Origin: Candidatus Yanofskybacteria bacterium RIFCSPLOWO2_01_FULL_42_49 | GTDB taxonomy: Bacteria; Patescibacteriota; Minisyncoccia; 2-02-FULL-40-12; GWA2-44-9 | Assembly (NCBI GenBank): GCA_001795615.1 | Contig: MGKI01000011.1 | Coordinates: 44,996 to 108,995 of the forward strand | DNA length: 64,000 nt | Direction of reading: 5' to 3' | Shown: in pieces, positions 11,543-43,335 of the stretch | Layout: each line of letters begins with the position of its first letter | Numbering within the stretch: position 1 is the first letter of the stretch | Program-made: the position numbers and the translations under genes | The notes under the pieces: generated by a model | What the model was told of the DNA's origin: nothing | Databases searched by the model: none | What the model saw: only the letters and a program-made list of their open reading frames with translations

Positions 11543-11545
11543 AAA

Positions 11546-12980: not shown

Positions 12981-14135
12981 CTACTGCGCTGACTTATAGT
13001 ATCCCAATGCTTCAAGCCCCGGCAGTTTTTCTCCGGCCAAGAATGCCAGCATTGCTCCCCCGCCGGTGGAGACGAAGTTTCCGCCAGAGGCGGATCCGCC
13101 TTCGGCGGAAAATTTATCAAAAATTTTGAATTTTGAAACTGCAGCAATTGTATCACCACCCCCGACTATTTTGTAAGCTTTGGACTCAACGATAGCTTCG
13201 GCAATTTTCTGGGTACCCATAGCAAAAGCCGAATTTTCAAAAAGTCCCATCGGCCCGTTCCATATTACCATAGACGCACCACCGATTGCATCAGCATATC
13301 TCTTTATCGTCTTTTCTCCTATATCAAGTATCTTATTGTCAAAAACAACAAAATCCTCCGGAATTAGAAGCTGGGAACTATCCAGGTCAAGACCAGCAAG
13401 AAGCTCCTTTGAATTCTCGTCCACAACTGAACTGCCCATGTCCTGGCCTTTTTCTTTAAGCACATCGTTTGCAACTACGCCACCAAGCAATATCTTTTCG
13501 GCTTTGTCTACAAAATTCTTGATAACCGACACCTTTGTTTCCGTTTTCGCTCCACCGATAATTATTATCTTTCCTAATTTAGAAGCATAAATTGCTTTTC
13601 GAAGTTGAACCGTCTCTTCCTGCACCAATAATCCGGCAAAACTTGGCAAAAATTCGGTTATGGCTGATACGGAAGCGTGGTCGCGATGACAAACCGCAAA
13701 ATTGTTATTAATGTAAATATCAAACCCCTTTGATAAGCTCAGGGCAAGCCCTTTATCATTTTCTTTTTCTCCGGATCCAGCAACTGCCGGATTGCGAATA
13801 TTATCCAAGAGACCGACACCCGGGTAGTTAGCAAGGTGCCCTTCAATGTCTTCGATATTTTTGATAAATACCACTTCGCGTCCCAGAAGGATATGAAGTT
13901 GGGGAATAAGATTGGAAAAAGAACTATCATCTTCGTGAAGGTGGGTAATCATTACCACCTTAGCTCCACGCTCAACTAGCCAGTCAATCATCACCTTTTG
14001 TTTCTTAATTCTAAACGATTCCGTGATTTCAGTAGCACACCCGCCTTCGCCAAGGCTTCGGACGGGCATGTCAAAATCAACCCTTAATAAAACTTTTTTG
14101 TTTTTTAAATCGGGAATATCGAGGACAGTTTTCAT
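12981..14135 (-). CDS. pgk: Phosphoglycerate kinase. Carries a 30-nt in-frame palindromic insertion (SAEGGSASGG) near the C-terminus.
   Basis: KKVLLRVDFDMP…GGGDTIAAV…STGGGAMLAFLAGEKLPGLEAL PGK signatures. 384 aa. Confidence 0.9.
   Translation of the reverse strand: MKTVLDIPDLKNKKVLLRVDFDMPVRSLGEGGCATEITESFRIKKQKVMIDWLVERGAKVVMITHLHEDDSSFSNLIPQLHILLGREVVFIKNIEDIEGHLANYPGVGLLDNIRNPAVAGSGEKENDKGLALSLSKGFDIYINNNFAVCHRDHASVSAITEFLPSFAGLLVQEETVQLRKAIYASKLGKIIIIGGAKTETKVSVIKNFVDKAEKILLGGVVANDVLKEKGQDMGSSVVDENSKELLAGLDLDSSQLLIPEDFVVFDNKILDIGEKTIKRYADAIGGASMVIWNGPMGLFENSAFAMGTQKIAEAIVESKAYKIVGGGDTIAAVSKFKIFDKFSAEGGSASGGNFVSTGGGAMLAFLAGEKLPGLEALGYYKSAQ
13080..13109. repeat. 30-nt GC-rich double mini-hairpin, in frame within pgk.
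   Basis: tccgcc-aga-ggcgga tccgcc-ttc-ggcgga, encoding SAEGGSASGG relative to canonical PGK. Confidence 0.8.
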
Positions 14136-14935
14136 AAAATTTTTGAAACAGTGGCTAAAATTTTTACAAACTCTTCTTTATTTACACTTGCACCGCCTAC
14201 CAAAACACCGTCAAATTGATTATTTTGTAAAAATTCCCGGGCATTAGCAGAAGTGATGGAACCGCCATATAAATAGGTCTTAGGTTTTAGGTTATAGGTT
14301 TTAGATAAAACTTCTTTGATTATAAATATTGACTCCGCAGCACTTTCGGGGGTATCGGAACGGGCGCCGGGAGTCGTGCTTATCGCCCAGACCGGCTCAT
14401 AGGCAATGATACACCGTGTGACTTCATCAGCCGAAAGACCGGCAAAAGTTGCTTCGACTTGTTTTTTTATGAAATCCTTCCAGCCGGAGGCTGGTTCGCC
14501 TTCGGCGGAAAAATCTCTTTCTCTCTCGCCTATGCAGACTATCGGTACCATTTCATTCCTTAAGACGGCCTTAAGTTTTTTATTTACCGTTTCGTTAGAC
14601 TCGTTTAACTTCCATCTTCTTTCGGAGTGGCCAACAATGACATATCCCACACCGAGTTTGCACAACATCGATCCAGAGACCTCGCCGGTTAGAGCCGTTT
14701 TGTCGTCTATCGATATGTCCTGCGCGCCAAGTTCCGCCTGATGTTCCAAGTGTGATGTTTTTAAAATCTTTCCGACTTCCTCAGTAAAAACAAAGGGGGG
14801 ACAAAATATCAGTCCGAATCTTTCGGCTTCCGATAAAGAACCGAGGTATTTGTCAGCCGAATCCAGAATCTCGACCGCTTCGGCCAGCGAATCGGGATGA
14901 TTCTTCCAATTGGCCACAATCAGTTGTTTAGTCAT
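14132..14935 (-). CDS. tpiA: Triosephosphate isomerase. Carries a 30-nt in-frame palindromic insertion (SAEGEPASGW).
   Basis: ANWKNHP…VGHSERR…CIGE…YEPVWAISTTPG TIM signatures. ATGA overlap with pgk. Confidence 0.9.
   Translation of the reverse strand: MTKQLIVANWKNHPDSLAEAVEILDSADKYLGSLSEAERFGLIFCPPFVFTEEVGKILKTSHLEHQAELGAQDISIDDKTALTGEVSGSMLCKLGVGYVIVGHSERRWKLNESNETVNKKLKAVLRNEMVPIVCIGERERDFSAEGEPASGWKDFIKKQVEATFAGLSADEVTRCIIAYEPVWAISTTPGARSDTPESAAESIFIIKEVLSKTYNLKPKTYLYGGSITSANAREFLQNNQFDGVLVGGASVNKEEFVKILATVSKIL
14480..14509. repeat. 30-nt GC-rich double mini-hairpin, in frame within tpiA.
   Basis: ccagcc-gga-ggctgg ttcgcc-ttc-ggcgga, encoding SAEGEPASGW. Confidence 0.8.
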
Positions 14936-15554
14936 GAGTTAAGTGCCTCTTTGTTTTATGGCGATATATATACCATATTACCAAAACAATCAACAAAACG
15001 GCCAAAATATAATTAAACTTTTCAAAATAAGTCAGCAATTTTTGAATATAGTCATCCGCTTTAAAACCGACATAGACATACAAAAAATTGAGAGGCATTG
15101 ATCCTAAAAAAGTAAAAAGCGAAAACTTTGATAAGTTCATTCTTGATATGCCGGCTGGAATCGGAATAACACTTCGCGAAGAAGGCAAGACATAGCCCCA
15201 AAAAACGATTTTATCGCCGTATTTCAAAAACAACCTATCTAAATGCCCAAGTTCGTGTTGAGTTATCAAAAAATACTTTCCATACCTTTCTAAAAACGGC
15301 CTGCCACCCTTCATAAAAATGAAATAAAGAGCCAGATTGCCAAAAAAGTTGCCAAGAGTCACCCACACCATAACGGGCCAAAAAGAAAATTTTCCCTGGC
15401 CGACAAGTATCCCGAAAGCCGGCAAAATTATTTCCGCCGGAATAAGAAATATGGTTAACCTATCCAAGAGAGATGCCCAAAAAACACCGGCGTAGCCAAG
15501 AGATCCAAGAAATCCGACAGCTTTATCTATGGAAGAGGACAGAATTTCAAACAT
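14928..15554 (-). CDS. DedA/TVP38-family membrane protein.
   Basis: Polytopic, with DedA-like G-x3-F…R-x-(F/L) pattern (KGGRPFLERYGKYF). 208 aa. Confidence 0.55.
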   Translation of the reverse strand: MFEILSSSIDKAVGFLGSLGYAGVFWASLLDRLTIFLIPAEIILPAFGILVGQGKFSFWPVMVWVTLGNFFGNLALYFIFMKGGRPFLERYGKYFLITQHELGHLDRLFLKYGDKIVFWGYVLPSSRSVIPIPAGISRMNLSKFSLFTFLGSMPLNFLYVYVGFKADDYIQKLLTYFEKFNYILAVLLIVLVIWYIYRHKTKRHLTHD

Positions 15555-15569
15555 GGTTCAACAAGCTCA

Positions 15570-16598
15570 CTATAAATTAGTTTCTCTTAACAATTTTGCC
15601 GCTTCGTCCGGATCAACCGTATTTACAAACACGTTCGTCCCCAGCTCCATTCCCGCCGCAATGGAAAAACGAGGCATTATCTCAATGTGCCAGTGATAAA
15701 AATCATAAAGACCGGAACTGTCCTTTTTAATCGGCGAAGTGTGGACGAAAAATGTGTAGTCGGGGTTGTTAAGCGCAACATACAACTTTTTTAAAGTCTT
15801 GTTTAAAATTTCCGCCAAGAGCATAAAATCTTCATCTTTTGTATCCCCGAAATTGGAATTTTTCTTTTTGGGGAATATCCTTACCTCATAAGGAGTGCGG
15901 CTTACGAAAGGACAAAGGGCAATAAATTTTTCATTTTCGTAAATAATTCTTTTGTTCTGGTCTGCCTCCCACTCTAAAAGCATCTCATGGATTTTCTCCC
16001 CCGTTCTCTCAAAAAATTCTTTCGCTCCTTTAATATTCTTCAAAATACCCGGCGGTATTATGGGCATGGATAAAATCTGGGAATGGTTGTGGTAAACAGT
16101 TGCCCCGGCGAAGAAACCGTGATTGTGAAATATCAATACATAGTCACCGCATTCGTCTTGAGATATGGAGTTGTACCGGTCTTTATAAACCCTAAGCACT
16201 TCCGCCGTTTCTTCGTCCGTAAATTGAGCAAAACTTTTATCATGGTCACGGGTAATAACAAGCTCATGGAATCCAAAACCGTCTGCGACTAAAAAGGGGC
16301 CGATGTTCCGAGGCGGCACGCAAAACCCGTCGGCAAGAGCCGGATACTTATTCTTTACAACTTGAGTCGTCCACTCCCTGGCAGATTCCTTTTCCCAGAC
16401 AACTTTTTGACCTTTATTGTAAACAAGAATCGGATCTCTATGGTCTGACCTTTGGGGATCTTCAAAGGGACAGGTTTCTTTGTCTTGATAAAGCTGACTA
16501 TGTTTAGTGGTCTCTTGGGGACTTGGTTTTTTAGCTCTTTCGGTAGAAATTAAAACCCAGTCGCCGGAAACAATATCTTGTCGGAATTCATTGAGCAT
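15570..16598 (-). CDS. galT: Galactose-1-phosphate uridylyltransferase (HIT-family GalT).
   Basis: FHNHGFFAGATVYHNHSQILS (H-x-H-x-Q), CPFVSRTPYEVRIFP, HWHIEIMPR. 342 aa. Confidence 0.7.
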   Translation of the reverse strand: MLNEFRQDIVSGDWVLISTERAKKPSPQETTKHSQLYQDKETCPFEDPQRSDHRDPILVYNKGQKVVWEKESAREWTTQVVKNKYPALADGFCVPPRNIGPFLVADGFGFHELVITRDHDKSFAQFTDEETAEVLRVYKDRYNSISQDECGDYVLIFHNHGFFAGATVYHNHSQILSMPIIPPGILKNIKGAKEFFERTGEKIHEMLLEWEADQNKRIIYENEKFIALCPFVSRTPYEVRIFPKKKNSNFGDTKDEDFMLLAEILNKTLKKLYVALNNPDYTFFVHTSPIKKDSSGLYDFYHWHIEIMPRFSIAAGMELGTNVFVNTVDPDEAAKLLRETNL

Positions 16599-16610
16599 CG
16601 CTTCGCTTGT

Positions 16611-16695
16611 GTAATACGAATTTTACAAATATCACACGAATACTGCGAATAATTCGTGGTATTCGTATACCATTCGTAGTATTCAGATTATGTTA
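16611..16695. repeat. ACGAAT-rich leader element, copy B, between GT2 and galT, ending about 12 nt upstream of the galT ATG.
   Basis: gtaatacgaattttacaaatatcacacgaatactgcgaataattcgtggtattcgtataccattcgtagtattcag. Confidence 0.8.
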
Positions 16696-17430
16696 ATCGT
16701 ACTTGCCAGTCATCAGATTCCATCTTATTTTAACTGTTTCCATAAGAACTTGGAAATACGCTTTTAGGCCGACATGGGACTCGGCGGCATTTTTCCAATC
16801 AACGGGAACTTCTTTTATCTTGTAGCCGAACTTCCTTGCCAAAGCAAGCACCTCGACATCAAATCCCCATCTTTCAATCGTAAGTTTGGGAAATATTTTC
16901 TCTGCCGCTTCGGCAGTGAAAAGTTTAAATCCTCTTTGGGTATCATTTATCCCGGGCACAGCCATAATTTGAATGAATAAATTGCCCATTTTACCAAAAA
17001 GACGGCGCCAGGCCGGTTCGCTTCCGGCGGCAACTTTATGGCCTGAAATAGCTATGGAACCGATAACCACTGAGTATCCTTCGCTTATATAAGGAATGAA
17101 CTTCTCCAAATGGTCCATAGAAGTTGAGTTATCAGCATCAGTGAAAAGACGCAGATCGCCGCTTGCTTTGGTCATGCCTTGCTTTACAGCATAACCCTTG
17201 CCACGGTTTATTTCGTAATCAAGAAGTTGAAGTGTTGAAAGCTCGGTTTTTAACAAACGGACAATATCATTGGTCTTATCTTTTGATCCGTCGGTAACAA
17301 CTAAAATTTCATGATCAATGTTTTTATCTTTCAGATAACAAAAAATGGGCCTGATAGTCTTTTCAATATTCTTCTCCTCATTGTAAGCAGGAATGATGAC
17401 GGATAAAAACATATAAATTATAATAACCAA
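16693..17430 (-). CDS. Glycosyltransferase family 2 (dolichyl/polyprenyl-phosphate sugar synthase-like).
   Basis: MFLSVIIPAYNEEKNI…VVTDGSKDKT…DADNS GT2 motifs. Contains a degenerate copy of the mini-hairpin insertion (AAGSEPAW). Confidence 0.8.
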   Translation of the reverse strand: MVIIIYMFLSVIIPAYNEEKNIEKTIRPIFCYLKDKNIDHEILVVTDGSKDKTNDIVRLLKTELSTLQLLDYEINRGKGYAVKQGMTKASGDLRLFTDADNSTSMDHLEKFIPYISEGYSVVIGSIAISGHKVAAGSEPAWRRLFGKMGNLFIQIMAVPGINDTQRGFKLFTAEAAEKIFPKLTIERWGFDVEVLALARKFGYKIKEVPVDWKNAAESHVGLKAYFQVLMETVKIRWNLMTGKYD

Positions 17431-17643
17431 CGGTCAATATCTAATACCAAATAACCAATAACCAACATCCAATAAAACAATTAAAAAATATTTTAAATAA
17501 CCAAACCCGTAATTGTTTTAAACATTATATAATCGTTTATTTATTGGTTATTGGTGATTGAATATTGGTTATTTGTTAATTATTCAGTAGCTTTAATCTA
17601 TCACAATTTGACCCTTTATTCAAACTCGCATAATCTTAATTGA

Positions 17644-18522
17644 ATGACTGGAGAAATTGCTCAAATACCTCTCGATAACAAATACTACCCAAAATTACTG
17701 GCTCAAATTCCTGACCCTCCGAAAAAATTGTACTGCCGGGGAAACTTAAATCTGCTGGACAGCGAATGTTTTGCCGTAGTCGGAACAAGAAAATTAACTT
17801 CTTACGGGAAAGAAGCTGCGCAAAAAATCACCACTGGTTTGGTTCAGTCCGGATTTACAATAGTAAGCGGGCTGGCAATGGGTATTGACGCCGTGGCCCA
17901 TCAGACGACCTTAAATAACGGCGGCAAAACAATTGCCGTGCTGGGAGGCGGGGTTGACGATAAAAGCATTGGCCCTCAAATAAATTTTAAGTTGGCAATA
18001 GATATTTTAAAAAATCACGGTCTAATAATATCCGAGTATCCTGAAGGATTTCATGCCAACGAAAAAACCTTCCCTCAAAGAAACAGGATAATAAGCGGGC
18101 TATCGAGAGGCATATTGGTTATTGAGGCAGACGAGAAAAGCGGAGCGTTAATAACCGCTCACTGCGCCCTTGATCAAAACCGTGATGTTTTTGCCATACC
18201 GGGAAGTATTTTTTCTTCCAAGTCATTCGGACCAAATGAACTAATTAAAAGGGGGGCGAAATCGGTCACATCGGTTCAGGATATAATCGACGAATATGGT
18301 TACAACTTGAATATTTTTGATAAAAAGCGTAATACTATATCCACAAATAATCCTGTCGAGAAAAGTATTATTGCTATACTTGAAGAGAAGGGGGAAGCCA
18401 CCATGGATGAAATGATAAGAGAATCTGCGGAAGAAACTTCAAAAACAATCGCGACAATATCAACACTTGAAATGCGAGGAATAATAAAAGAAACGGGAAA
18501 TGGAAAATACAGAATAGCATAA
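17644..18522 (+). CDS. dprA: DNA processing protein DprA/Smf.
   Basis: AVVGTRKLTSYGKEAA…IVSGLAMGIDAVAHQTTL…TIAVLGGGVD Rossmann-like DprA core. 292 aa. Confidence 0.8.
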   Translation: MTGEIAQIPLDNKYYPKLLAQIPDPPKKLYCRGNLNLLDSECFAVVGTRKLTSYGKEAAQKITTGLVQSGFTIVSGLAMGIDAVAHQTTLNNGGKTIAVLGGGVDDKSIGPQINFKLAIDILKNHGLIISEYPEGFHANEKTFPQRNRIISGLSRGILVIEADEKSGALITAHCALDQNRDVFAIPGSIFSSKSFGPNELIKRGAKSVTSVQDIIDEYGYNLNIFDKKRNTISTNNPVEKSIIAILEEKGEATMDEMIRESAEETSKTIATISTLEMRGIIKETGNGKYRIA

Positions 18523-18523
18523 A

Positions 18524-18592
18524 TATAATACGAATGCCACGAATAGTTATTCGCAGTATTCGTGTGATATTCGTAGAATTCGTATTACACTT
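18524..18592. repeat. ACGAAT-rich leader element, copy C (opposite genomic orientation, same orientation relative to transcription), ending 5 nt upstream of the topA ATG.
   Basis: Reverse complement gtgtaatacgaattctacgaatatcacacgaatactgcgaataactattcgtggcattcg matches B and D. Confidence 0.8.
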
Positions 18593-18594
18593 TA

Positions 18595-20906: not shown

Positions 20907-20940
20907 AAATTACTCCCAAAAGAGTAATTTTCTTTTATAC

Positions 20941-22671: not shown

Positions 22672-22676
22672 GAAAT

Positions 22677-23549: not shown

Positions 23550-23550
23550 A

Positions 23551-23637
23551 AATGTAATACGAATTCTACGAATATCACACGAATACTGCGAATAATTCGT
23601 GGTATTCGCATATTATTCGTTATATTCGTATTATGTT
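23551..23637. repeat. ACGAAT-rich leader element, copy D, between parA and parB, ending 4 nt upstream of the parB ATG.
   Basis: aatgtaatacgaattctacgaatatcacacgaatactgcgaataattcgtggtattcgcatattattcgttatattcgtattatg. Confidence 0.8.
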
Positions 23638-23639
23638 GA

Positions 23640-24404
23640 TTAACTTGTTAACCTTATGACTTCCTCCGCCAATTGCCTATACGCTCTTGCCGCACGGGAA
23701 CCAGGGTCAAACTGCAAAATTGTTTTACCGAAACTTGGTGCTTCGGCCAATGACACCAACCGAGGAATAACAGCATTGAAAACTCGGCCGGGGAAATTTT
23801 TGTGGATCTCATTCATCACTTGGTGCGATAACTGGTTCCTCTTATCATACATTGTAAGCAATACCCCAAGCACTTGCAAATCAGGGTTAAGCCCTTGCCG
23901 GACAAGGTTGATTGTATTAAGCAGCTGGCTTAATCCTTCTAGTGCGAAGTATTCGCACTGAACCGGAATTACCACATTCTCTGAAGCAGCCAAAGCATTA
24001 ACGGTCAAAAGCCCTAGCGAAGGCGGACAATCAATCAGTATGTAGTCATAATTTGTACGAATTGAGTTTAGAACTTTCTTGAGACGGGTTTCTCTTTCAT
24101 CCATCGTAACCAGTTCTACGGTAGCACCGGCCAAGCTTTGAGCGGCGGGAAGAATGTCAAAGCCAAAGATTGATGTCTTTCTTATTATCGTCTCTGGATT
24201 TTGGTCAACGACAAGAGAATGATAAACATTGGGGTGATCTTGTTTTAGACTTACTCCAATACCAATCGTAGCATTTGCTTGAGAGTCTAAATCAACCAAT
24301 AAAACATATCTGCCCATAGCCGCAAGGTAGGCGGCTAAATTAGTGGCAGTAGTGGTCTTGCCAACTCCCCCTTTTTGATTGCAAACACTTATTACTCTAG
24401 CCAT
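23640..24404 (-). CDS. parA: Chromosome partitioning ATPase ParA/Soj.
   Basis: ISVCNQKGGVGKTTTATNLAAYLA deviant Walker A. 254 aa. Confidence 0.9.
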   Translation of the reverse strand: MARVISVCNQKGGVGKTTTATNLAAYLAAMGRYVLLVDLDSQANATIGIGVSLKQDHPNVYHSLVVDQNPETIIRKTSIFGFDILPAAQSLAGATVELVTMDERETRLKKVLNSIRTNYDYILIDCPPSLGLLTVNALAASENVVIPVQCEYFALEGLSQLLNTINLVRQGLNPDLQVLGVLLTMYDKRNQLSHQVMNEIHKNFPGRVFNAVIPRLVSLAEAPSFGKTILQFDPGSRAARAYRQLAEEVIRLTS

Positions 24405-34366: not shown

Positions 34367-34441
34367 AAAACCCCGAAAGGGGTTTTTAGATATTTTTTCC
34401 AGAATTTGCAAAATAGCAAAATTTAAAGGCCCATAAGGGCC

Positions 34442-35044: not shown

Positions 35045-35092
35045 ATGCTGTACCTATTTTCTTGTTAAGAAACTTAGTTTATTCTACCTAAC

Positions 35093-36142
35093 ATGGCAGC
35101 TAAAATCAATCCGCCAGCTGGCGGACAAAAACTAATCGTCATTGTAGGCCCGACGGCTTCAGGAAAGTCGGATTTGGGCATCAAAATTGCTAAAAAAATT
35201 TCCGCCAGAGGCGGACCAGCCTCTGGCTGGAACGGTGCGGAAATAATTTCCGCGGATAGCCGACAAGTTTATCGTGGAATGGACGTCGGAACAGGAAAAG
35301 TTTTGCGAGACAAAACTTTTCCTGTTCCGAGTTCAAAAGTTAAAAGTGAAAAGTTAAAAGTTTTAAGAAATTATTTTTATTCTTCGGGGATTCGACATCA
35401 TTTGATAGATGTTGCTTCACCGAAAAAACAATTTACGGCTGATGACTTTAAAAGATTAGGGCAAAAAGCAATAAAAGAAATACTCGAGAAAAATAAAATC
35501 CCCATCATTGTCGGAGGTACCGGATTTTACATTGATATCTTGCTTGGCCGAATGTCGGTTGCCGAAGTCCCGCCAAATCCCAAATTGCGTAAATGCTTCG
35601 AGAGACTCAATACGGAGCATCTTTTCAAAATGCTTCGAAAACTAGACCTCCAACGAGCTAAAACAATAGGACCCAAAAACAAGCGCCGACTTATCCGAGC
35701 ATTGGAGATAATTCTAATAACCGGCAGACCGATACCAAAACCAGTATTAAGTATAAAGTATAAAGTATTATGGTTAGGGTTAAATCCTAAAAACTTGAAA
35801 GAGAGAATTAAGGTTCGCCTAGACGAGCGACTAAAACAAGGGATGATTGAAGAAGTTATAAATTTGCGCAAGCAAGGGGTAAGCTGGAAACGGCTTGATG
35901 GTTTCGGACTGGAATACCGCTATATCTCAAAGTACCTTCGAGAATTTTCAATTTCCAATTTTCAATTTTCAAAAAAAGATTACTACAATAATTTCAAGAA
36001 ATCATTCTATTACGGTAAACTCTTAAGAGATATAATCAAATACTCAAAGCGCCAGATGACCTGGTTCAAGAGAAATGAGGAAACATGTTGGATTAAAAAT
36101 TATTTGGAAGCAGAGAAATTGACGAAAAATTTTGTCTCATAG
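35093..36142 (+). CDS. miaA: tRNA dimethylallyltransferase with three in-frame low-complexity/palindromic insertions.
   Basis: GPTASGKSDLGIKIAKK…AEIISADSRQVYRGMDVGTGK…HHLIDV MiaA signatures. Inserts are SARGGPASGW, a KVKSEKLKV block and a FSISNFQFS block. Confidence 0.85.
   Translation: MAAKINPPAGGQKLIVIVGPTASGKSDLGIKIAKKISARGGPASGWNGAEIISADSRQVYRGMDVGTGKVLRDKTFPVPSSKVKSEKLKVLRNYFYSSGIRHHLIDVASPKKQFTADDFKRLGQKAIKEILEKNKIPIIVGGTGFYIDILLGRMSVAEVPPNPKLRKCFERLNTEHLFKMLRKLDLQRAKTIGPKNKRRLIRALEIILITGRPIPKPVLSIKYKVLWLGLNPKNLKERIKVRLDERLKQGMIEEVINLRKQGVSWKRLDGFGLEYRYISKYLREFSISNFQFSKKDYYNNFKKSFYYGKLLRDIIKYSKRQMTWFKRNEETCWIKNYLEAEKLTKNFVS
35201..35230. repeat. 30-nt GC-rich double mini-hairpin, in frame within miaA.
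   Basis: tccgcc-aga-ggcgga ccagcc-tct-ggctgg, encoding SARGGPASGW. Confidence 0.8.
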
Positions 36143-36177
36143 CTCTTCCGTACGGAATAGTTGTGAGACACTCGTAT

Positions 36178-37773
36178 CTATGCTCTTAACCTTTCTCTAA
36201 ATATCCCCTCGATTATTTGGGGATTTGCTTTACCCTTTGTTTCCCGCATGGCCATGCCGACAAGAAATTTTAGCGACGCTTCTTTCCCTTTTTTATAATC
36301 TTCCACGGCTTTAGGATTATCAGCAACAACCTTGTCCACCGCCATCTCAAGATCGCCGATGCTTGATAACTGTGCAAGATCTTTTTCTTCTATTATTTTC
36401 CCCGGAGAAGCTCCGGTCGCAAACATTTCTTTCAGCACTGTCTGGGCGCCGCTTGAAGAAACCTCGCCATGGAATATTCTGACGACAAGATCGGCCAGCA
36501 TTTCCGGTAACACTTTTGTATCTGCCAGTTCAGCATAAACCTCTTCGGCCATTCGTTTTAATTCGGTGATAAGATAGTTAGCTGCTAATTTAAAAAGTTG
36601 TTTGTGATGCTCCTCCAGTTTGCCCGCCCCGTAGTGTGATTTCGATTTTTCTTTGCCGGAGGAGGCATTCGAAATCTCTACTTCGGGGTCAAAAGATAAC
36701 AATTCCGAAGCCACATGTTCAAAATAATCTCCGAGCAGTTTGTCTGTGGTAAAAAGCTTAGTGTCCTTTTCTGGCAAACCGTATTGCTTGGCAAATCTTT
36801 CTCTTCTTTGTTGCGGTAACTCTGGAAGTCGGGACTTGATGTCTTCAATGTCGACGTCTTCAAAATGAAGCGGCGGCAAGTCCGGTTCCGGGAAATATCT
36901 GTAATCCTGCGCCTCTTCCTTTGTTCTCATTAAATACGTCTCCCCTTTTTTCTCATCCCAACCCCGTGTCTCTTGCTTTACCTTCTCCCCTGCCTCAAGA
37001 AGTTCGGTTTGTCTTTTTATCTCATAATTAACAGCATCGGCGGCAAACTTAATAGAGTTAATGTTTTTAACCTCAACTTTTGTCCCTAATTTGTTTGGTA
37101 ATTGTCCGCCAACTGGCGGATTGGAAATTGGTAATTCCGGTCGAAGTGATATATTCACTTCTACGCGCATCTGTCCTTTTTCCATGTCGGCGTCGGAAAC
37201 ATTTAAGTATCTCCAAATAAGCTGCAACTCCTCCGCAAATTTTTTGACCTCCTGTCCGCTTTCAAGATCTGGTTCTGTCACCAACTCCATAAGTGGCACC
37301 CCGGCACGATTAAAATCAACCAGTGAGTAGTCGGCACCAGTCGGATGGTACAACCGTCCAGCATCTTCCTCAAGATGTATTCGTGTTATTCTTATTCGTT
37401 TCGGATTTGAAATTTCTGGTTCTGAACTTGTTTCAGATTTTATATCAAGATACCCTTCATAACACAACGGTTTCTGGTATTGAGAAATCTGATAACCCTT
37501 AGGCAAATCTGGGTAAAAGTAATTTTTTCTTTCAAAAAAGGTGTCTTTTTCAATTTTACAATTCAACGCCAATCCGGTCATAATCACTTTTTTCACAGCA
37601 TCTTCGTTTGCGACGGGCAAGGTTCCCGGATGCCCCATACAAATTGGACAGACATTAACATTCGGGTGTTTTTCATCCGGATCATTTAACGAATCACAAA
37701 ACATTTTAGTTTTTGTCTTCAGCTCGGCGTGTATTTCCAGACCGATAACTGGCTTGTATTTAGTAGCGGCCAT
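36178..37773 (-). CDS. gatB: Asp/Glu-tRNA amidotransferase subunit B. Contains a 65-nt in-frame palindromic insertion (DPEVEISNASSGKEKSKSHYGAG).
   Basis: MAATKYKPVIGLEIHAELKTKTKMFC…NVCPICMGHPGTLP GatB N-terminus. 531 aa. Confidence 0.85.
   Translation of the reverse strand: MAATKYKPVIGLEIHAELKTKTKMFCDSLNDPDEKHPNVNVCPICMGHPGTLPVANEDAVKKVIMTGLALNCKIEKDTFFERKNYFYPDLPKGYQISQYQKPLCYEGYLDIKSETSSEPEISNPKRIRITRIHLEEDAGRLYHPTGADYSLVDFNRAGVPLMELVTEPDLESGQEVKKFAEELQLIWRYLNVSDADMEKGQMRVEVNISLRPELPISNPPVGGQLPNKLGTKVEVKNINSIKFAADAVNYEIKRQTELLEAGEKVKQETRGWDEKKGETYLMRTKEEAQDYRYFPEPDLPPLHFEDVDIEDIKSRLPELPQQRRERFAKQYGLPEKDTKLFTTDKLLGDYFEHVASELLSFDPEVEISNASSGKEKSKSHYGAGKLEEHHKQLFKLAANYLITELKRMAEEVYAELADTKVLPEMLADLVVRIFHGEVSSSGAQTVLKEMFATGASPGKIIEEKDLAQLSSIGDLEMAVDKVVADNPKAVEDYKKGKEASLKFLVGMAMRETKGKANPQIIEGIFRERLRA
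36624..36688. repeat. 65-nt imperfect palindromic element, in frame in gatB.
   Basis: cccgccccgtagtgtgatttcgatttttctttgccggaggaggcattcgaaatctctacttcgggg. Arms cccgtagtgtgatttcga and tcgaaatctctacttcggg. Confidence 0.8.
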
Positions 37774-37821
37774 AACTACATTAAAATACCATTATTTTTT
37801 GTAATAAAAAAGTCTCCATTA

Positions 37822-39561
37822 TTAGAGACTTTGTGTCAACGGCACTTCAGAACCGCGAGCAAATATGTAGGCAGGAGTCATGTTGGCCCTCGAAAATAGG
37901 TGCCACCACGGATAAAGATCACGCAAACCTTTCTCAATAGAGAGAAAGATCTGCCTCACTTCGTGATTAACTGACGGTTTAGTTCTTTGCCAGTTACAAA
38001 ACTCATGCTGTCGCAAATTGGCTGAATAAATAAACCCAGCCCTAAAACCAATCGGCAGAATATACTGAGATATTACTGGCGGAACTTGATTTAATCCCAC
38101 ATAAACATTTTGGCTTGACTGTTTGGCGATTTGGAAACTTTTAGCAAGCTTAGGAGGCTGTGGTTTATCATACCGATAAAATCCGAGAGAGGGGGTCAAT
38201 AAAGTCCTCCGATGAGTAGACAGACCCTGACGATGCAAGTCGCGCCATCCTCTAAAAGACATCACCCCCACAAAGGGAACGGTGACTAACTCAAATTCTC
38301 GAGGCAACTTGTCGTGATCGTCGCGTCCGCCAATAAATAATTCCCCAACGATATCTCGAATGTCCAAAATACTCAGATGCTCGTCTTCTTCTCTAAAGAA
38401 AAATGCCTCTTCGATAATGTTTTTGGCTATTTCGTTCTTGGGAACAGTAATAAAGGGCACAATTCTTTCTAACCCGCCAAACAAGGTTAGCGGTATATGC
38501 TTCCACCCCCGTATTTCAGCATCCGAGGGTTGATAGTGACGAATGAACTGGTCTGCTCCGACTTTGCCTGCTTCCTGCAAAATCAATTCCACAAGCGCTA
38601 AATTTTCAGCCGTATCATCAAGAATAAGGTGTCTTAGAACAGACGGCAGTGACTCGCCACTAATCGCGGCGGCGACAGAAGTAAGGGTTGCTGCCGGAAG
38701 TAAGTTGCCTAAAATATCAAATGTTTCACCGGCAACACCAACTTCAACTTTGCCTCCATTCTCTTCGATCAACTTCCCCCATTTCTCTCTAAGAAAGTTA
38801 GGAAACAGACCGTTTAAATTATCGCCCAAGTTGTCTGCATAAAGAATAAACAGACTGTTTAGGTGATTTTGAATAACTGACGCGGATGTTCCTAATACTC
38901 GGAGTTCGTTATCAATTGGATATACTCCCGCTTTTTCTCTGTCGACAAATCTTGTCGACAGCTCAACATAACCGGCTCCGGGCCGCGTCCACTCAATTGA
39001 TTTAGCGGCAAGAATAGAAACATCCTCAAAACAGATCCATACCTCACCCATCCTGGCAATAGAGTTGTGGCCATATTGATCCAACCACATACCAAGAAAT
39101 TTTTTGGCTTTTTGCGAATCTGCCAACAGCCGAGTATATGCTTCTTCGGGGGCTTGAGACACAAACCACTCAAATTTAGACCTCGTTTCAGATGAGTAGG
39201 AAATAAAATCGCGCAGATTTTTTATTTCATGGTTCTTAAGAAATGGCTCAACATCGTCTTGGCTCGTGCATAAATTACTCACCAGAAGACCAGGCAAAAA
39301 AGAGTCGACAAAAACACCCCTGATTCCGCGTTTATTTTTAAGCCTGGAGAACATCGAGGCAAGCGTGGCCATTACATTAGAAGGCAAGGAATGCATAAAA
39401 AATACCCGTTGATCAATATTAGTAAAGAATGGTTTTAATGTTTTTTGTTCATCTCCTGAAAAAGAGTATCCGACTTTGGAATGAACAAACTCTCTAGCAA
39501 CCGAAACAAGAGCATCCTGCTTTTCTTTCGGCAGCACAGACAAGCCAAGACCTGTGTCCAT
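37822..39561 (-). CDS. Thy1/ThyX-family (flavin-dependent thymidylate synthase) homolog with tandem duplicated domains and degenerate catalytic motifs.
   Basis: Half 1: YGHNSIARMGEVWICFEDVSILAAKSIEWTRPGAGYVELSTRF versus ThyX GH-x-SV-x-EH…F-x-GVSR…QLVRHR-x-ASY-x-E-x-S-x-RY (AGYVELSTRF matches ASYNELSGRY). Half 2: …FVGVMSFRGWRDLHRQG…SLGFYRY. The RHR and E-H residues are substituted in both halves. 579 aa. Confidence 0.4.
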   Translation of the reverse strand: MDTGLGLSVLPKEKQDALVSVAREFVHSKVGYSFSGDEQKTLKPFFTNIDQRVFFMHSLPSNVMATLASMFSRLKNKRGIRGVFVDSFLPGLLVSNLCTSQDDVEPFLKNHEIKNLRDFISYSSETRSKFEWFVSQAPEEAYTRLLADSQKAKKFLGMWLDQYGHNSIARMGEVWICFEDVSILAAKSIEWTRPGAGYVELSTRFVDREKAGVYPIDNELRVLGTSASVIQNHLNSLFILYADNLGDNLNGLFPNFLREKWGKLIEENGGKVEVGVAGETFDILGNLLPAATLTSVAAAISGESLPSVLRHLILDDTAENLALVELILQEAGKVGADQFIRHYQPSDAEIRGWKHIPLTLFGGLERIVPFITVPKNEIAKNIIEEAFFFREEDEHLSILDIRDIVGELFIGGRDDHDKLPREFELVTVPFVGVMSFRGWRDLHRQGLSTHRRTLLTPSLGFYRYDKPQPPKLAKSFQIAKQSSQNVYVGLNQVPPVISQYILPIGFRAGFIYSANLRQHEFCNWQRTKPSVNHEVRQIFLSIEKGLRDLYPWWHLFSRANMTPAYIFARGSEVPLTQSL

Positions 39562-39650
39562 CTTCCCTCTTTATCAAAGAACGGTTTTTAAATGTTATCA
39601 AAAAACTTGTAAACAAAAAAGCCCTTCTGGGGGCTTGAGCGAAAAAGGTA

Positions 39651-40334
39651 TTATGACAACTTGATCCCGTTGGCGTTTAGAAGTTTTAACAATTCGCTTT
39701 TGACATCAGAGAATATCTCCTCAATGCTTCTGGACCCGTCAATAAAATGAAGATTTGCTTCCGGGTACTCGCGAGCAAAGATATAAAAATTTTCCCTTAC
39801 TCTTGCTAGCGTGTCTAGCCTTTCCATTTCGTCAAACGACCGACCCGACGCCTTGCCTCGTTCAATGGCCAGTTCAGGTGGTACATCAAAAATAAATACT
39901 TTGTCAGGCCACACCCAGTATCGGCGGTGGAGTTGTTGGTTCATTTCCATAAGCATGTGCAATTCAATAACATTGCCCTTTTCTGCTCCGTAAACCATCG
40001 ACTCCCTAAACCTGTCAGTGCAGACGATGTGTCCCGCTTCAAGACCAGGTATTACTTCCATCTCGCAATGCATCCGGCTGTCTTTGGCAAACAACTCTTG
40101 CAAATCAAACGGATCGGTTTGAGCAAACAATTGCTTGTCTCCCAAAATAGACCTTATCATCCTTCCAAAGCGTTGAGTAGTCGGTTGTTTTGTCCGCAGA
40201 ACCGCAATATTTTTATCTGCCAGATTGGCCCTCAACCAGTTGCATATCCTCAAAACCTGGCTTGACTTCCCACAGAAGTCGATACCACTGCCACACAAAA
40301 AAAGGCCACGATAGGGATTTTGTAAAACACCCAT
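39651..40334 (-). CDS. Divergent thymidylate-kinase-like P-loop nucleotide kinase.
   Basis: FLCGSGIDFCGKSSQ P-loop, LRTKQPT…GRMIRSIL, lid region HIVCTDRFRESMVYGAEKG, and DVPPELAIERGKASG…FDEMERL (Tmk architecture). A canonical tmk exists at 59920. Confidence 0.55.
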   Translation of the reverse strand: MGVLQNPYRGLFLCGSGIDFCGKSSQVLRICNWLRANLADKNIAVLRTKQPTTQRFGRMIRSILGDKQLFAQTDPFDLQELFAKDSRMHCEMEVIPGLEAGHIVCTDRFRESMVYGAEKGNVIELHMLMEMNQQLHRRYWVWPDKVFIFDVPPELAIERGKASGRSFDEMERLDTLARVRENFYIFAREYPEANLHFIDGSRSIEEIFSDVKSELLKLLNANGIKLS

Positions 40335-40508
40335 GTTTTTCTCCTTAAAGAACTAAAATGCTCCAGTAGGAGCATTTTAGTTCACTTTCAAAAATTAAGC
40401 AAGTTTTTACTTCATCCCGCACCAATCTTATCCCTGCCTGCCGGCAGGCAGGCGTTGACCGCCATTAAGAAAGGTGGCGGGATTGGTGCGGGATTCCGTT
40501 CGCTTCGC

Positions 40509-40931
40509 TCACTTCACTTCAATCCCCATCGATCTTGCCGTTCCCTCGATTATTTTCATTGCCCCTTCGACATCATTCGCGTTTAAATCGGCCATTTTTT
40601 GTTCAGCTATCTCTTTGACTTGGGCTTTGGTAACTTTGCCGACTTTTGTCTTGTTTGGCACACCGGAACCTTTTTCAAGTCCGGCGGCAACTCGTAAAAG
40701 ATATGCCGCAGGAGGGGTTTTTAATTTAAATTCAAAACTCCTGTCTTCATAGATAGTTATCTCGACTGGGGTAACTTGGCCCATTTTATCTTTGGTTGCA
40801 TCATTAAACTGCGACACGAACTGCTGGAGATTTATTCCATGAGGACCCAAAGCCGTACCAACCGGCGGAGCCGGAGTAGCTCGCCCGCTTTCGACTTGGA
40901 GTTTTACAATTGTTTTTATTTTCTTAGCCAT
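40509..40931 (-). CDS. rplK: 50S ribosomal protein L11.
   Basis: [34 protein letters not shown]. 140 aa. Confidence 0.9.
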
Positions 40932-40934
40932 AAA

Positions 40935-41112
40935 TTTTAATAAATCTCTAAATCCTAATCTCTAAATCCTAAACACCTGCCTGCCGGCAGGCAGGAATCC
41001 AAAATTCTCAGCCTGAGGCTGATCCGCCTCTGGCGGAAAATATCTAAATGTTTTTGGATTTTGATATTTGGTCATTTGATATTGTTTAGAAATTAGAAAT
41101 TGCGAGTTATAT
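40935..41112. repeat. Composite intergenic element, copy 1 (AT-rich heptad module plus three GC hairpins), upstream of rplK.
   Basis: aaatctctaaatcctaatctctaaatcctaaacacctgcctgccggcaggcaggaatccaaaattctcagcctgaggctgatccgcctctggcggaaaatat…gatattgtttagaaattagaaatt. Nearly identical to copy 2. Confidence 0.85.
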
Positions 41113-41115
41113 TTT

Positions 41116-41661
41116 TTACAATTTCTTAATTTGTAAAAAATCTAACTCGACTGGTGTTTCGCGACCAAAAATAGTCACCAACACCTTTACTCGGCCCTTT
41201 TCCGGATCTATCTCGGATATCTTGCCGTCAAAGTCCTTGAACGGACCGTCGGTTATTTTTACCCTATCACCCACCTCCACGTCAATCTTGTACTTCGGTT
41301 CGTCAACGCCCATTCTCTTCAATAATGTCTCAACTTCTTCGCTTGAAAGAGGCGTCGGCACGGTGCCAGCTCCGATAAATCCGGTCACATTCGGCGTATT
41401 TCTAACTACATACCAGGAATCATCATCCACCAACATCTCAACTAAAACATAGCCGGGATAAATTTTTTCCTCAATCGTTTCTCTTTTCCCGCCCTTAATT
41501 CTGATCTTTTTTTCCTTGGGAACAAGAACATTAAAAATTTTGTCTTCAAATCCAAGCGACTCAACACGCTGTTTGAGGTTTCGGGACACATTGTCTTCAT
41601 AACCTGAATAGGTATGGATCGCGTACCACTGTTTCTCTCCGGTTGTAACTTGCTTCGGCAT
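41116..41661 (-). CDS. nusG: Transcription termination/antitermination factor NusG.
   Basis: WYAIHTYSGYEDNV NGN domain plus KOW (VGDRVKITDGPFKDFDGKISEID). 181 aa. Confidence 0.85.
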   Translation of the reverse strand: MPKQVTTGEKQWYAIHTYSGYEDNVSRNLKQRVESLGFEDKIFNVLVPKEKKIRIKGGKRETIEEKIYPGYVLVEMLVDDDSWYVVRNTPNVTGFIGAGTVPTPLSSEEVETLLKRMGVDEPKYKIDVEVGDRVKITDGPFKDFDGKISEIDPEKGRVKVLVTIFGRETPVELDFLQIKKL

Positions 41662-41844
41662 TTATAACTTGCTGGCCGCTCTCGCCTTCCGGCAACTGCC
41701 GGATTATGGCGAGTACGCTCTTGACCGACTTTTTCGTTAAATCTTTCGCTTGCTCCTTACCATACATTAGTATGGCTCGTCGCAATGCTCAGATTTGTCT
41801 CAAATTCGGTCAAGCCAGCTGCGTTCTAATCTAAATCTTTTTTA

Positions 41845-42027
41845 TTAAATTATGAATTTATTCAACAACCACTCGAACATAAAATCTAATAACCCTAAAA
41901 ACACCGCTGTAGCCAAACTAATAGCAACCACCACAATGGTATATTGGACAGTTTGGCTTTTGGTCGGCCAGCTTACTTTTGATAATTCGTGTCTGACCTC
42001 TTTTAGAAAAGTAATGAGTTTATCCAT
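41845..42027 (-). CDS. secE: Preprotein translocase subunit SecE.
   Basis: MDKLITFLKEVRHELSKVSWPTKSQTVQYTIVVVAISLATAVFLGLLDF. Conserved secE-nusG-rplK order. Confidence 0.75.
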   Translation of the reverse strand: MDKLITFLKEVRHELSKVSWPTKSQTVQYTIVVVAISLATAVFLGLLDFMFEWLLNKFII

Positions 42028-42098
42028 TCCATTAATTAAAGTATTTAAAAACGCCCTCGGGCGCACTTAATTTCCCTTAATGATAGCAAAATTTAATA

Positions 42099-42392
42099 TT
42101 AACTGTCAATAGCCTTCTTCTGAACATCGGTGGCCAATAAATAACCTGAGCGAAAGTAGTATTTAAGATTTTCCAAAAAAGACATTCCGTCGTAAGGATA
42201 TAGTTTGCCGGGTTTCGCATTTTTGTAATCAAAAATTCCTTCTCCTTCTATGTTTTTTAAAACGGGGTGGTTTTCATCTCCGTCAATTTCAACTCTCCCC
42301 GGTTCATCGCCTTGCATTTTAAAAGTAGCAATCTTTCTTTGCTTTGCATCTTTGTCCAGTTCGTATAAGTCAACGAAATAAAATAAGGTCAT
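42099..42392 (-). CDS. Hypothetical protein (97 aa).
   Basis: ORF only. Overlaps the next gene by 4 nt. Confidence 0.4.
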   Translation of the reverse strand: MTLFYFVDLYELDKDAKQRKIATFKMQGDEPGRVEIDGDENHPVLKNIEGEGIFDYKNAKPGKLYPYDGMSFLENLKYYFRSGYLLATDVQKKAIDS

Positions 42393-43147
42393 ATCGAGAT
42401 TGTTCCGGTTTCCAATACCGTTGCCGCTATTTGCTTAACACCGGTTATAACTTTGATCAAGGTCGGTGTCACTGTTTCAACACCTATTTCTCTTGGGTCA
42501 ACCAGAAGCCGCTCTAAGGCCTCAACGAGCCTTCTCAATGGCTCTCTCGATTCGTCGTTAATTTCTGTCTTTAGCCCCCGGCGTTTAGCTTCACCTAACA
42601 TGTAATTATACTGATTCCATTCTTCCTTGGCATCTGCAAACATAAAATCATCATGGTCTGTGAGCCAAATTTTTTTAGTTCTTTCTAAAAAAATATTTGC
42701 TAATTTTCTGTCCGCTGCCTTTATCAGATGTTCAAAAAGTACCGCTCGAAATAATTCCTCGTCTGAAATTTCTCTTAAACAATCATCCTCAAGTTTCACG
42801 GCCGGTGTGGCTTCACCTAAAAACCGCTGCAAGGTTCCCTCTTCTTGATTAACCGTCCTCATTACGACTTCTGGGACGACTCCTAATTCTGCGGTTTTAC
42901 TGATAAGTCTCGCTAATAGCTCAAGTTGAACTCTTAATGGCCTTCCTCTGGCTTCGCTCTCTTTGGGCCTGAACAAACCCTTCCCGTCATCTCTAATTTC
43001 TACAACATCAAATCTCTCCGCTCCCTCAAGTGGCCGACTGTCAACAATCTCTCCTCTCTCCAAAACCGACTCAATATCAACTTCCGGACCTGTTTCCGGC
43101 TTTGTGACTGGAGCTTCATGTTTTTCGAAAGATTGACCCTCTGCCAT
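42389..43147 (-). CDS. Hypothetical acidic protein (about 252 aa from MAEGQ).
   Basis: ORF. The track's 69-nt N-terminal extension (MDSCLPAGRCLGF…) is translation of the intergenic palindromic repeat, so the start is placed at 43147. Confidence 0.45.
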   Translation of the reverse strand: MAEGQSFEKHEAPVTKPETGPEVDIESVLERGEIVDSRPLEGAERFDVVEIRDDGKGLFRPKESEARGRPLRVQLELLARLISKTAELGVVPEVVMRTVNQEEGTLQRFLGEATPAVKLEDDCLREISDEELFRAVLFEHLIKAADRKLANIFLERTKKIWLTDHDDFMFADAKEEWNQYNYMLGEAKRRGLKTEINDESREPLRRLVEALERLLVDPREIGVETVTPTLIKVITGVKQIAATVLETGTISI

Positions 43148-43335
43148 AAGTGGTAAAATCTCTAAATCCCAATCTCTAAATCCTAAACACCTGCCTGCCG
43201 GCAGGCAGGAATCCAAAATTCTCAGCCTGAGGCTGATCCGCCTCTGGCGGAAAATATTTAAACGGTTTTGAGCTTTGATATTTGGTTATTTGATATTGTT
43301 TAGAGTTTAGAAATTAGAGTTTAGGGTTTTCTGTT
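43148..43335. repeat. Composite intergenic element, copy 2, upstream of the hypothetical gene 42389..43147 and downstream of gyrB.
   Basis: Same about 150-nt sequence as copy 1 with a few substitutions. Confidence 0.85.

Follow-up and report, generated by a model that had tools for sequence, protein, structure and literature searches.

A 30-nucleotide double mini-hairpin recurs in frame in core-enzyme genes of a Yanofskybacteria genome and at loci in many bacterial phyla

How does one and the same 30-nucleotide (nt) sequence come to stand, in frame, inside the genes of three unrelated essential enzymes, and also between genes? The question is raised by a 64,000-nt stretch of contig MGKI01000011.1 of Candidatus Yanofskybacteria bacterium RIFCSPLOWO2_01_FULL_42_49 (hereafter the window; G+C = 43%), in which pgk, tpiA and miaA each carry a double mini-hairpin that is translated as ten residues, and in which two further copies are intergenic. 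We estimate at roughly 0.6 the probability that this 30-mer is a member of a family of miniature palindromic repeats with a wide distribution – insertional DNA of a selfish type – that is spread by a hairpin-recognising nuclease acting in trans. A preliminary description had already proposed an element that exists at the level of DNA and that essential enzymes tolerate as a loop; this is supported by the patchy occupation of sites, by gains of exactly 30 nt, by the near identity of the inserts as DNA and by the existence of non-coding copies.

A degenerate 30-nt pattern matches the window at exactly five sites (0 expected from 100 dinucleotide-preserving shuffles), and a single-hairpin pattern has 11 matches against 0.99 expected. 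The idea that the motif might be no commoner than base composition predicts is not borne out in the window. The best matches of window proteins are in Candidatus Yanofskybacteria and other Paceibacteria, and MiaA is 100% identical to a protein from a Rifle 'RIFCSPLOWO2_01_FULL' MAG (metagenome-assembled genome) of Yanofskybacteria. The host ORFs (open reading frames) of the coding copies were identified with Pfam as Pgk, TpiA and MiaA, and the copies are as follows.

13080..13109, in the pgk ORF 12981-14135, minus strand: double mini-hairpin, coding-strand sequence TCCGCCGAAGGCGGATCCGCCTCTGGCGGA; insert peptide SAEGGSASGG, Pgk residues 343-352; insert-spanning peptide FSAEGGSASGGNF
14480..14509, in the tpiA ORF 14132-14935, minus strand: double mini-hairpin, coding-strand sequence TCCGCCGAAGGCGAACCAGCCTCCGGCTGG, one stem position mismatched; insert peptide SAEGEPASGW, TpiA residues 143-152; insert-spanning peptide DFSAEGEPASGWK
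35201..35230, in the miaA ORF 35093-36142, plus strand: double mini-hairpin TCCGCCAGAGGCGGACCAGCCTCTGGCTGG, translated as SARGGPASGW; insert-spanning peptide ISARGGPASGWNGAE
41008..41037, intergenic, downstream of nusG and adjoining rplK: double mini-hairpin TCAGCCTGAGGCTGATCCGCCTCTGGCGGA
43222..43251, intergenic, downstream of gyrB: double mini-hairpin, the same 30 nt as 41008-41037
40942..41101, intergenic: 160-nt repeat, copy 1, made up of the element, the palindrome CCTGCCTGCCGGCAGGCAGG and AT-rich repeats
43156..43315, intergenic: 160-nt repeat, copy 2, 94% identical to copy 1

Both intergenic elements thus sit within the 160-nt repeat, and the three coding copies are, as translation confirms, each exactly 30 nt long and in frame. 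Six copies had originally been counted. Five of them stand, with positions that were right in pgk, tpiA and miaA and wrong by 1-2 bases at the two intergenic sites; the sixth, at 17006-17031 in a GT2 gene, is not an element. There the segment GSEPAWRR is conserved, without an indel, in 30 of the 30 orthologues examined, and the DNA folds no better than shuffled sequence (z = -0.49): of the loop peptides first proposed, SAEGGSASGG, SAEGEPASGW and SARGGPASGW hold, and the GT2 segment is native conserved sequence. A true element does occur in the GT2 orthologue of locus L002 (2568-3317), at a different site (YFS[AEGGSASGGE]QGY), and at that site the GT2 orthologue of L127 (1845-2627) has an insert of 21 residues. 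Two ordinary roles for such a sequence were considered and rejected: no terminator-like or notable promoter-like prediction falls on the element at its intergenic positions, and it scores below every Rfam gathering threshold (two tRNAs were the only Rfam families recovered from the window).

Profiles were built from 127-131 copies from many genomes, collected with a search pattern that had left the variable stem positions free. The consensus is ttTCCGCC-NNA-GGCGGA-TCCGCC-TNN-GGCGGAaa, with variants in which CAGCC pairs with GGCTG or in which the ends are C...G. The unit is a hairpin of 15 nt – a GC-rich stem of 6 bp, (T/C)C(C/A)GCC with GGC(G/T)G(A/G), and a loop of 3 nt – and in most cases an inverted second unit abuts it, the first loop reading NNA and the second TNN. 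Among 131 copies, positions 0 and 14 pair as T:A in 106, as C:G in 17 and otherwise in 8; positions 2 and 12 pair as C:G in 94, as A:T in 35 and otherwise in 2. Covariation of this kind is confined to the interior of each hairpin, with none between the two: the conserved structure is thus a pair of separate 6-bp hairpins, as the description of two abutting mini-hairpins had it. The last base of loop 1 is A in 94% of copies and the first base of loop 2 is T in 95%, so that the doublet is a unit plus its inverted copy, as in REPINs, the doublets of repetitive extragenic palindromic (REP) sequences. Folded as single-stranded DNA (ssDNA), the intergenic copy 41008-41037 forms two separate hairpins at -11.6 kcal/mol (z = -5.2). 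A single 15-bp palindrome, the long form that ViennaRNA favours for some copies, was rejected because covariation backs only the two hairpins, and an extension of the stem into the flanks was rejected because no covariation is evident at positions ±1 to ±6. The flanks do show a preference of another kind: T stands at -2 in 80% of copies and A at +2 in 78%, in agreement with empty sites of the form TTN|NAA (the bar marks the junction).

Such empty sites can be compared with filled ones at the level of DNA (loci from other genomes are given by L numbers).

pgk site: empty AAATTC|AACTTC (L001) and AAATTT|AACTTC (L123); filled AAATTT[30]AACTTC (window)
tpiA site: empty AAT TTT|AAA GAT (L001); filled AAT TTT[30]AAA AAG (L229)
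miaA site: filled AAA ATT[30]AAC

At the pgk and tpiA sites the net gain is exactly 30 nt, no target bases are duplicated, and in all three genes the junction is always TTY|RAN. The element is therefore not a miniature inverted-repeat transposable element in the strict sense, which has terminal inverted repeats and a target-site duplication.

The same picture of presence and absence is evident among proteins. In 120 Pgk homologues the site between 'KF' and 'D/N-FVSTGGG' is mostly empty; SAEGGSASGG is present in 7, the five-residue half SAEGG (one hairpin) in 3, and others have different inserts at that very point. Most TpiA homologues read 'RD-xNF|KDF', the element following the Phe codon in about a dozen, and most MiaA homologues read 'KKF|NGEIIS', the element being present in nine. 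Comparison with structures in the PDB gives a gap of 10 residues in PGK of B. stearothermophilus (1PHP) exactly at SAEGGSASGG and one of 11 residues in MiaA of B. halodurans (2QGN) at SARGGPASGWN, while TIM of T. maritima (1B9B) is shorter than the window TpiA at the insert. The statement that the usual forms of these three enzymes have no residues at the insert sites is thus upheld, and the orthologue alignments that had been recommended show that relatives mostly lack exactly these ten. AlphaFold models of Pgk and TpiA (alignments of 41 sequences; overall predicted local distance difference test, pLDDT, 90.3 and 89.2) place both inserts in predicted disordered loops, in line with the surface-loop location that had been put forward: the sole internal stretches with pLDDT <50 lie inside the inserts, in coil, at residues 345-351 of Pgk and at residues 143-145 of TpiA, the latter between a strand (130-135) and a helix (151-163). 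Filled Pgk alleles belong to at least three lineages, each of which has nearest relatives (77-84% identity) that are empty.

Other families of insert share these codon junctions. An 'SSGQA' type (DPSASSGQV; STSSGQAR/LGGQA; LNSGQAKLA) occurs at the junctions used by the element in Pgk, TpiA and MiaA, with loci at L230 6470-7309 and L232 10001-11134, and a 'LAKLAQGKAFKK' type occurs at the MiaA junction; the latter would form a hairpin if its codons were AAACTTGCC-CAA-GGCAAGTTT, which is a guess on our part.

If the inserts had been gained once and had since drifted with their host genes, their DNA should have diverged as the flanks have. The window, L002 and L134 have one pgk element in common, identical over all 30 nt and so in the loops too, where the Pgk proteins of the latter two are 62-64% identical to that of the window, and the miaA element of L231 differs from that of the window at 1 of 30 nt; generally the inserts are nearly identical as DNA while host proteins share about 57-65% identity. 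Taking the three genes together, orthologous elements agree at 86 of 90 nt (96%) and the 100-120 nt beside each of them at 456 of 675 (68%; Fisher p = 8e-10). The tpiA site holds more than one stem subtype across lineages (GPASGW and GSASGG/R forms), and the tpiA allele of L230 has a second palindrome, CCTGCC..GGCAGG, nested inside hairpin 1. Decayed copies are also found: that in tpiA of the window is one, and the peptides SVEDGPASGW and STRGGLSSGW in the TpiA and MiaA alignments are others. Given the difference between element and flank identity, the tpiA subtypes, the nesting, the decay and the patchy lineages, the pattern is hard to square with one old, neutrally drifting insertion and fits insertion or conversion that has recurred at hot spots. 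The MiaA orthologue of L231 (P0274, 7798-8904) has, in addition, a second double element at 8695-8724 and a 16-nt single hairpin at 8598, neither of which is present in miaA of the window.

An old insertion need not have been neutral, and the rival explanation that survives best is that each gene gained its copy once, early, that the copy was kept for its DNA or RNA structure – bound by a protein, say, or acting as a signal for replication or transformation or as a pause in translation – and that it was then precisely lost many times. Selection for pairing is indicated by the stem covariation; orthologous copies share stem subtypes and differ by 0-3 nt, mainly in the loops; three lineages have one and the same pgk copy; and no strain-level polymorphism has been seen. 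What such a history demands, however, is many independent deletions of exactly 30 nt without flanking direct repeats. Moreover, the differing tpiA subtypes, the nested insertions and decayed copies, the occurrence of the same element in unrelated genes and phyla and the predicted disorder of the encoded loops all speak against it, and we consider it unlikely.

The extent of that occurrence was evident from an exact-pattern scan of 185,579 genomes, one per GTDB species, which recovered the element at at least 120 loci. Among the matches listed, and going by the titles of their records, 51 loci are in Patescibacteria (many classes), 16 in PVC (Planctomycetes–Verrucomicrobia–Chlamydiae), 13 in Bacteroidota / Ignavibacteria / Chlorobi, 13 in uncultured Proteobacteria, 9 in Omnitrophota, a few in other groups and 9 in unclassified genomes; 2 are likely chance matches in high-GC genomes. 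Several matches are on contigs of 0.36-1.6 Mb, long-read MAGs among them, and the isolate Marivirga aurantiaca has another, so that mis-binning cannot account for the spread. A phage vector was considered and set aside: 2.9 million viral contigs gave 19 matches, some of them chance matches of high GC. In Marivirga aurantiaca (L032 1057-1086) and in a Cytophagales MAG (L112 1672-1701) the element has its flanks, GCAGCGTGGAAG[..]CATCTTTT, in common, a context that is conserved, non-coding sequence in Bacteroidota and in which no Rfam family matches.

Of the copies among these matches, 54 of 130 are placed well within ORFs of 150 aa or more, and their use of the reading frame is uneven: 38 of the 54 read SAxGG(S/P)AxG(G/W), 9 read PPxADPPxA and 7 are Arg-rich. 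The host genes are again housekeeping genes, encoding UvrA, UvrB, Mfd, PolA, DnaG, PheT (twice), HisRS, a class II aminoacyl-tRNA synthetase and the CCA-adding enzyme; other intergenic copies adjoin tmRNA and a 16S leader. The element is probably undescribed so far. The six commonest exact 15-mers (of many loop variants) gave no literature match, in a search outside which most subscription journals lie, and no description was found under repeats of the candidate phyla radiation (CPR), palindromes, in-frame insertions or UPF0213 in the mostly non-subscription literature searched. The earlier statement that it had not been described 'in this kind of genome' is probably right as to description and too narrow as to genome, the element being spread over many phyla.

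If the element is spread in trans, the responsible gene might recur at its loci. All-against-all clustering of ORFs from the loci listed gave no recurrent transposase, although no dedicated Y1 profile search was made; the largest clusters are housekeeping (MurE-like ligase, HisRS, Tgt, CarA, ABC-F ATPase). One recurrent small ORF does overlap or adjoin the element; its product, of about 80-115 aa, has a GIY-YIG domain (PF01541) and no other. Among the matches listed, a PF01541 ORF is 0-177 nt from the element in eight loci, against 0.26 expected from the density of GIY-YIG genes in 0.86 Mb of pgk-selected loci (Poisson p = 4e-10). Six of the eight are beside tRNA-Ser genes, and in all eight the element is in or beside a tRNA-like fragment – mostly inside a duplicated tRNA fragment or pseudo-copy – where it occupies the D-loop (GGTTG|AAGGC, GGTTT|AACTGG), the anticodon loop (CTTG|AAAAC) or the D-stem. 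At a ninth locus, L067, a duplicated 3' fragment of tRNA-Ser has it in its T-loop (GGTTC|GAATCC), and the sequence examined there contains no GIY-YIG gene. At L098 the element stands on both sides of the GIY-YIG gene, inverted between direct flanks.

The L098 protein, the one that was searched against the PDB, finds the UPF0213 proteins BH0048 and EF2693 first and SLX1 next; NCBIfam has no family for it. Going by this PDB match and by the likeness of the remaining ones, the element-associated GIY-YIG proteins appear closer to UPF0213/YhbQ and SLX1 than to the Ssn clade (CDD cd10448). The protein of L005 may, to judge from its sequence features, be more Ssn-like. In viral contigs, too, GIY-YIG genes are bordered by GC-rich hairpins, which differ in sequence from the element.

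The best-supported account, which is not demonstrated, is insertion at TTN|NAA, possibly driven by a GIY-YIG nuclease specific for the hairpin, followed by selection for a harmless frame and loop. Exactly 30 nt would be inserted where a T-rich position meets an A-rich one (TTN|NAA), without target-site duplication, the gene junctions used being F|K, F|N, F|D and I|N. Spread would need a trans-acting nuclease that recognises the hairpin, probably as ssDNA. The analogy of the Ssn-NTS/SRM system makes a UPF0213/YhbQ-type GIY-YIG endonuclease, small and of one domain, the best candidate. Coding copies would persist mainly in one frame, which is the same on both strands (Ser-Ala-x-Gly-Gly-(Ser/Pro)-Ala-x-Gly-(Gly/Trp)), and would survive at surface loops of the host protein, and so be translated as short flexible loops; the remaining copies lie between genes, beside stable-RNA genes and inside duplicated tRNA fragments. 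Once in place, copies would decay by point mutation or take up nested hairpins. The element and its structure, the polymorphism of sites, the target preference, the frame bias, the range of phyla and the adjacency to GIY-YIG genes are observed; that it moves in the present day, by a mode of this kind and with GIY-YIG as its enzyme, we infer, and the last of these we regard as possible, at somewhat less than even odds.

Several observations weigh against spread by insertion and against the candidate enzyme. A hidden Markov model made from the associated ORFs finds no GIY-YIG gene in the 64-kb window, in an extra 10 kb or in related Yanofskybacteria loci, and just 8 of ~125 sampled copies adjoin one. 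The adjacency could arise in part from GIY-YIG cassettes that make neutral tRNA pseudo-fragments with a TTN|NAA target, and some cross-phylum matches may be mis-binned, or due to chance in high-GC genomes (L029, L085). No gain or loss is seen between strains: ten contigs with 99.7-100% identity to the window have just the copies that it has. Finally, the identity of the pgk 30 nt in three lineages is unlike what random, independent insertion from a loop-variable family would give. Homing, gene conversion or a dominant master copy would account for it better, and the flanks at the pgk site (window, L002, L134) show no sign of co-conversion. A bolder reading would turn that identity to account: of 'homing' elements this double hairpin of 30 nt might be the smallest known, one that, with a small, structure- or sequence-specific GIY-YIG nuclease, is rewritten into the same TTN|NAA codon junctions of essential genes and into tRNA loops, crossing phyla and remodelling the surface loops of core enzymes across Patescibacteria and other uncultured lineages. 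Were this so, the identical 30 nt in pgk of three lineages would be a signature of homing or gene conversion and not of common descent. We offer the idea tentatively and hold it to be rather doubtful.

The closest parallel is provided by the Ssn nucleases, small single-domain GIY-YIG proteins that cut flanking hairpin repeats (NTS/SRM) as ssDNA, and whose NTS-ssnA-NTS layout was called insertion sequence (IS)-like by its authors (Chenal et al. 2025, PMC11893778). For Ssn a strong correlation of repeats with nuclease genes, put at 81%, is reported. Both systems comprise short, multi-copy hairpin repeats (20-50 nt) in many phyla; in both, the repeat is found on one or both sides of a small single-domain GIY-YIG gene (compare L098 with NTS-ssnA-NTS); and in both, different hairpins accompany different nuclease lineages. 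The present element is nevertheless not an SRM. Compared on both strands and together with 20 nt on either side, 174 copies of it yield just 1 fit to the SRM pattern HGTCWYN(0-2)YYVSBRHN(0-5)WNVSBRGN(0-2)RNCYNB, and the window yields 0; it has no oriented CGTC tag, is two-fold symmetric, and has many copies in frame in essential genes. On the strength of these likenesses we would say that the element works in the manner of the Ssn/NTS system without being a member of it.

A second parallel, drawn in the preliminary description, is with the Rickettsia palindromic elements (RPE), which are reportedly palindromic, lie in frame in Rickettsia housekeeping genes, are translated as surface segments and also occur in non-coding DNA. 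The comparison is apt for behaviour – in-frame insertion in protein genes – and not for membership: RPE are about 100-150 bp long, not known outside Rickettsia and not built of two 15-nt hairpins, and share no sequence with a 30-nt element of many phyla. Double-hairpin elements have reportedly been described in mitochondria as well, and these, the mitochondrial GC clusters and repetitive hairpin-forming elements are, like the present element, small GC-rich hairpins in AT-rich compact genomes that occur in intergenic DNA, in RNA genes and in frame in protein genes without encoding an enzyme. We know of none outside mitochondria; they are organellar and unrelated in sequence, whereas the present element is bacterial and multi-phylum. 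The small dispersed repeats (SDR) of cyanobacteria are said to be of 21-27 nt, without a known transposase, and to lie also inside genes and RNA genes. SDR and the cyanobacterial repeat HIP1 are as diminutive as the element, but they have other sequences, belong to other taxa and follow no double-hairpin rule, and to our knowledge no association with a nuclease has been reported for either.

REP repeats are GC-rich palindromes of 20-40 nt that form inverted doublets, reach high copy number and duplicate no target bases (PMC3733652). The element, too, is an imperfect palindrome in this size range arranged as an inverted doublet, and a second rival explanation follows: that it is a REP- or REPIN-like repeat moved by an enzyme whose gene lies elsewhere in the genome, either a Y1 transposase of the IS200/IS605 type (RAYT, REP-associated tyrosine transposase) or some other conventional transposase. 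Small size, GC-rich palindromy, the inverted doublet, the lack of target duplication and a fixed short target are all typical of hairpin-recognising HUH enzymes. REPs, however, are extragenic by definition, whereas the element is in long ORFs at 3 of 5 copies in the window and 54 of 130 overall; REPs are tagged with GTAG/CGTC, whereas the flanks here show just the T(-2) and A(+2) preferences. REPs are also linked to Y1 RAYT genes, and none was seen at element loci, nor any other recurrent transposase-like ORF family among the loci listed, though the search included no Y1 profile. We judge this explanation improbable.

Spread might also need no enzyme. Replication stalled at a hairpin could switch template into TT..AA microhomology, or nuclease-resistant hairpin oligonucleotides, left from DNA that the cell has taken up, could be incorporated. 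Boundaries that coincide exactly with the hairpin bases, the lack of duplication and the T-rich and A-rich flanks speak for such a process; the hosts have tiny genomes, with DprA encoded beside this locus; and the purine-rich triloops, with their C:G closing pair, are reminiscent of DNA mini-hairpins of very high stability. It would leave unexplained why the same stem is found across phyla, why an exact codon junction is used repeatedly and why GIY-YIG genes are adjacent, and we see little chance that it is the answer. That there is no element at all – that convergent low-complexity Gly/Ser/Ala loops or an assembly artefact are responsible, as the GT2 'copy' that proved to be a native conserved segment might suggest – is scarcely credible when identical DNA stands in genes whose proteins share 64% identity, when non-coding copies exist, when the peptide does not demand palindromy and shuffles give zero copies, and when the element is found by independent studies and assemblers, on long-read MAG contigs >1 Mb and in an isolate genome.

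Should spread by a nuclease acting in trans be the correct reading, the core enzymes of reduced Patescibacteria and of several other phyla would be peppered by a translated 30-nt DNA parasite, and part of the length variation and of the 'low-complexity loops' in such proteins would be explained. Here would be a case of a 30-nt element without coding capacity that spreads across phyla. The inserts would be natural markers of permissive loops in PGK, TIM, MiaA, aminoacyl-tRNA synthetases and repair proteins, and annotators and phylogeneticists would have reason for caution over identical inserts that are not homologous. There would be, beside Ssn/NTS, a second partnership of nuclease and hairpin, with uncharacterised GIY-YIG proteins of the UPF0213/YhbQ type, which could supply new structure- or sequence-specific ssDNA nucleases. 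For a miniature palindromic repeat the size, the in-frame colonisation of essential genes, the recurrence of sites, the range of phyla and the candidate nuclease are all unusual.

Two single hairpins lie in coding sequence of the window.

35110..35125, N-terminal region of miaA (NPPAGGQ): single hairpin with a 4-nt loop, TCCGCCAGCTGGCGGA; a sister family, membership uncertain
37105..37120, inside gatB (NPPVGGQ): single hairpin TCCGCCAACTGGCGGA, the core of a ~45-nt repeat

The N-terminal segment that carries the first is missing from most MiaA homologues, and 16-mers of this type recur in coding DNA of relatives. At the second (37093-37136, gatB), two contigs from different samples, L241 (4765-5551) and L242 (4745-5063), are 99.8-99.96% identical to the window and leave it ~15 nt past the hairpin, continuing as coding sequence for the C-terminus of SecA ('...EKKLS|ISNPPVGGQLPNKLG'). 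The ~45-nt repeat is thus present in secA as well, and the gatB/secA junction reflects either true recombination between its copies or a chimera that arose at the repeat during assembly.

The window has further repeats. The 20-nt perfect palindrome CCTGCCTGCCGGCAGGCAGG is intergenic at 40433-40452, 40976-40995 and 43190-43209, and degenerate at 10477-10496; inside the 160-nt repeat, two of its copies lie upstream of the double hairpin at a distance of 13 nt. At four gene borders there is a repeat of 43 nt whose ends are inverted repeats of each other (TTGTCTCATAA...TTATAAGACAA; 10376-10418, 10949-10991, 11545-11587, 36129-36171). AT-rich repeats of up to 88 nt (ACGAATACTGCGAATAATTCGTG...), both direct and inverted, surround GT2 and neighbouring genes (8865-8897, 16609-16697, 18547-18592, 23550-23640), and 477-nt tandem repeats are present at the left end of the window (2682-4412). 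A 15-nt coding tandem repeat in an 872-aa protein (about 54994-55076) differs by 30 nt between the window and the strain contig L233; this and a 10-nt gap in L236 are the only indels seen among the strain contigs. The pgk region is otherwise syntenic, and within it small, apparently mobile genes occur: a reverse transcriptase (RVT_1) between tpiA and pgk in L001 (9004-10026), and ORFs of the 23S_rRNA_IVP/bAvd type at varying positions (window 7345-7725; L002 1161-1544; L229 13545-13925 and 15418-15783).

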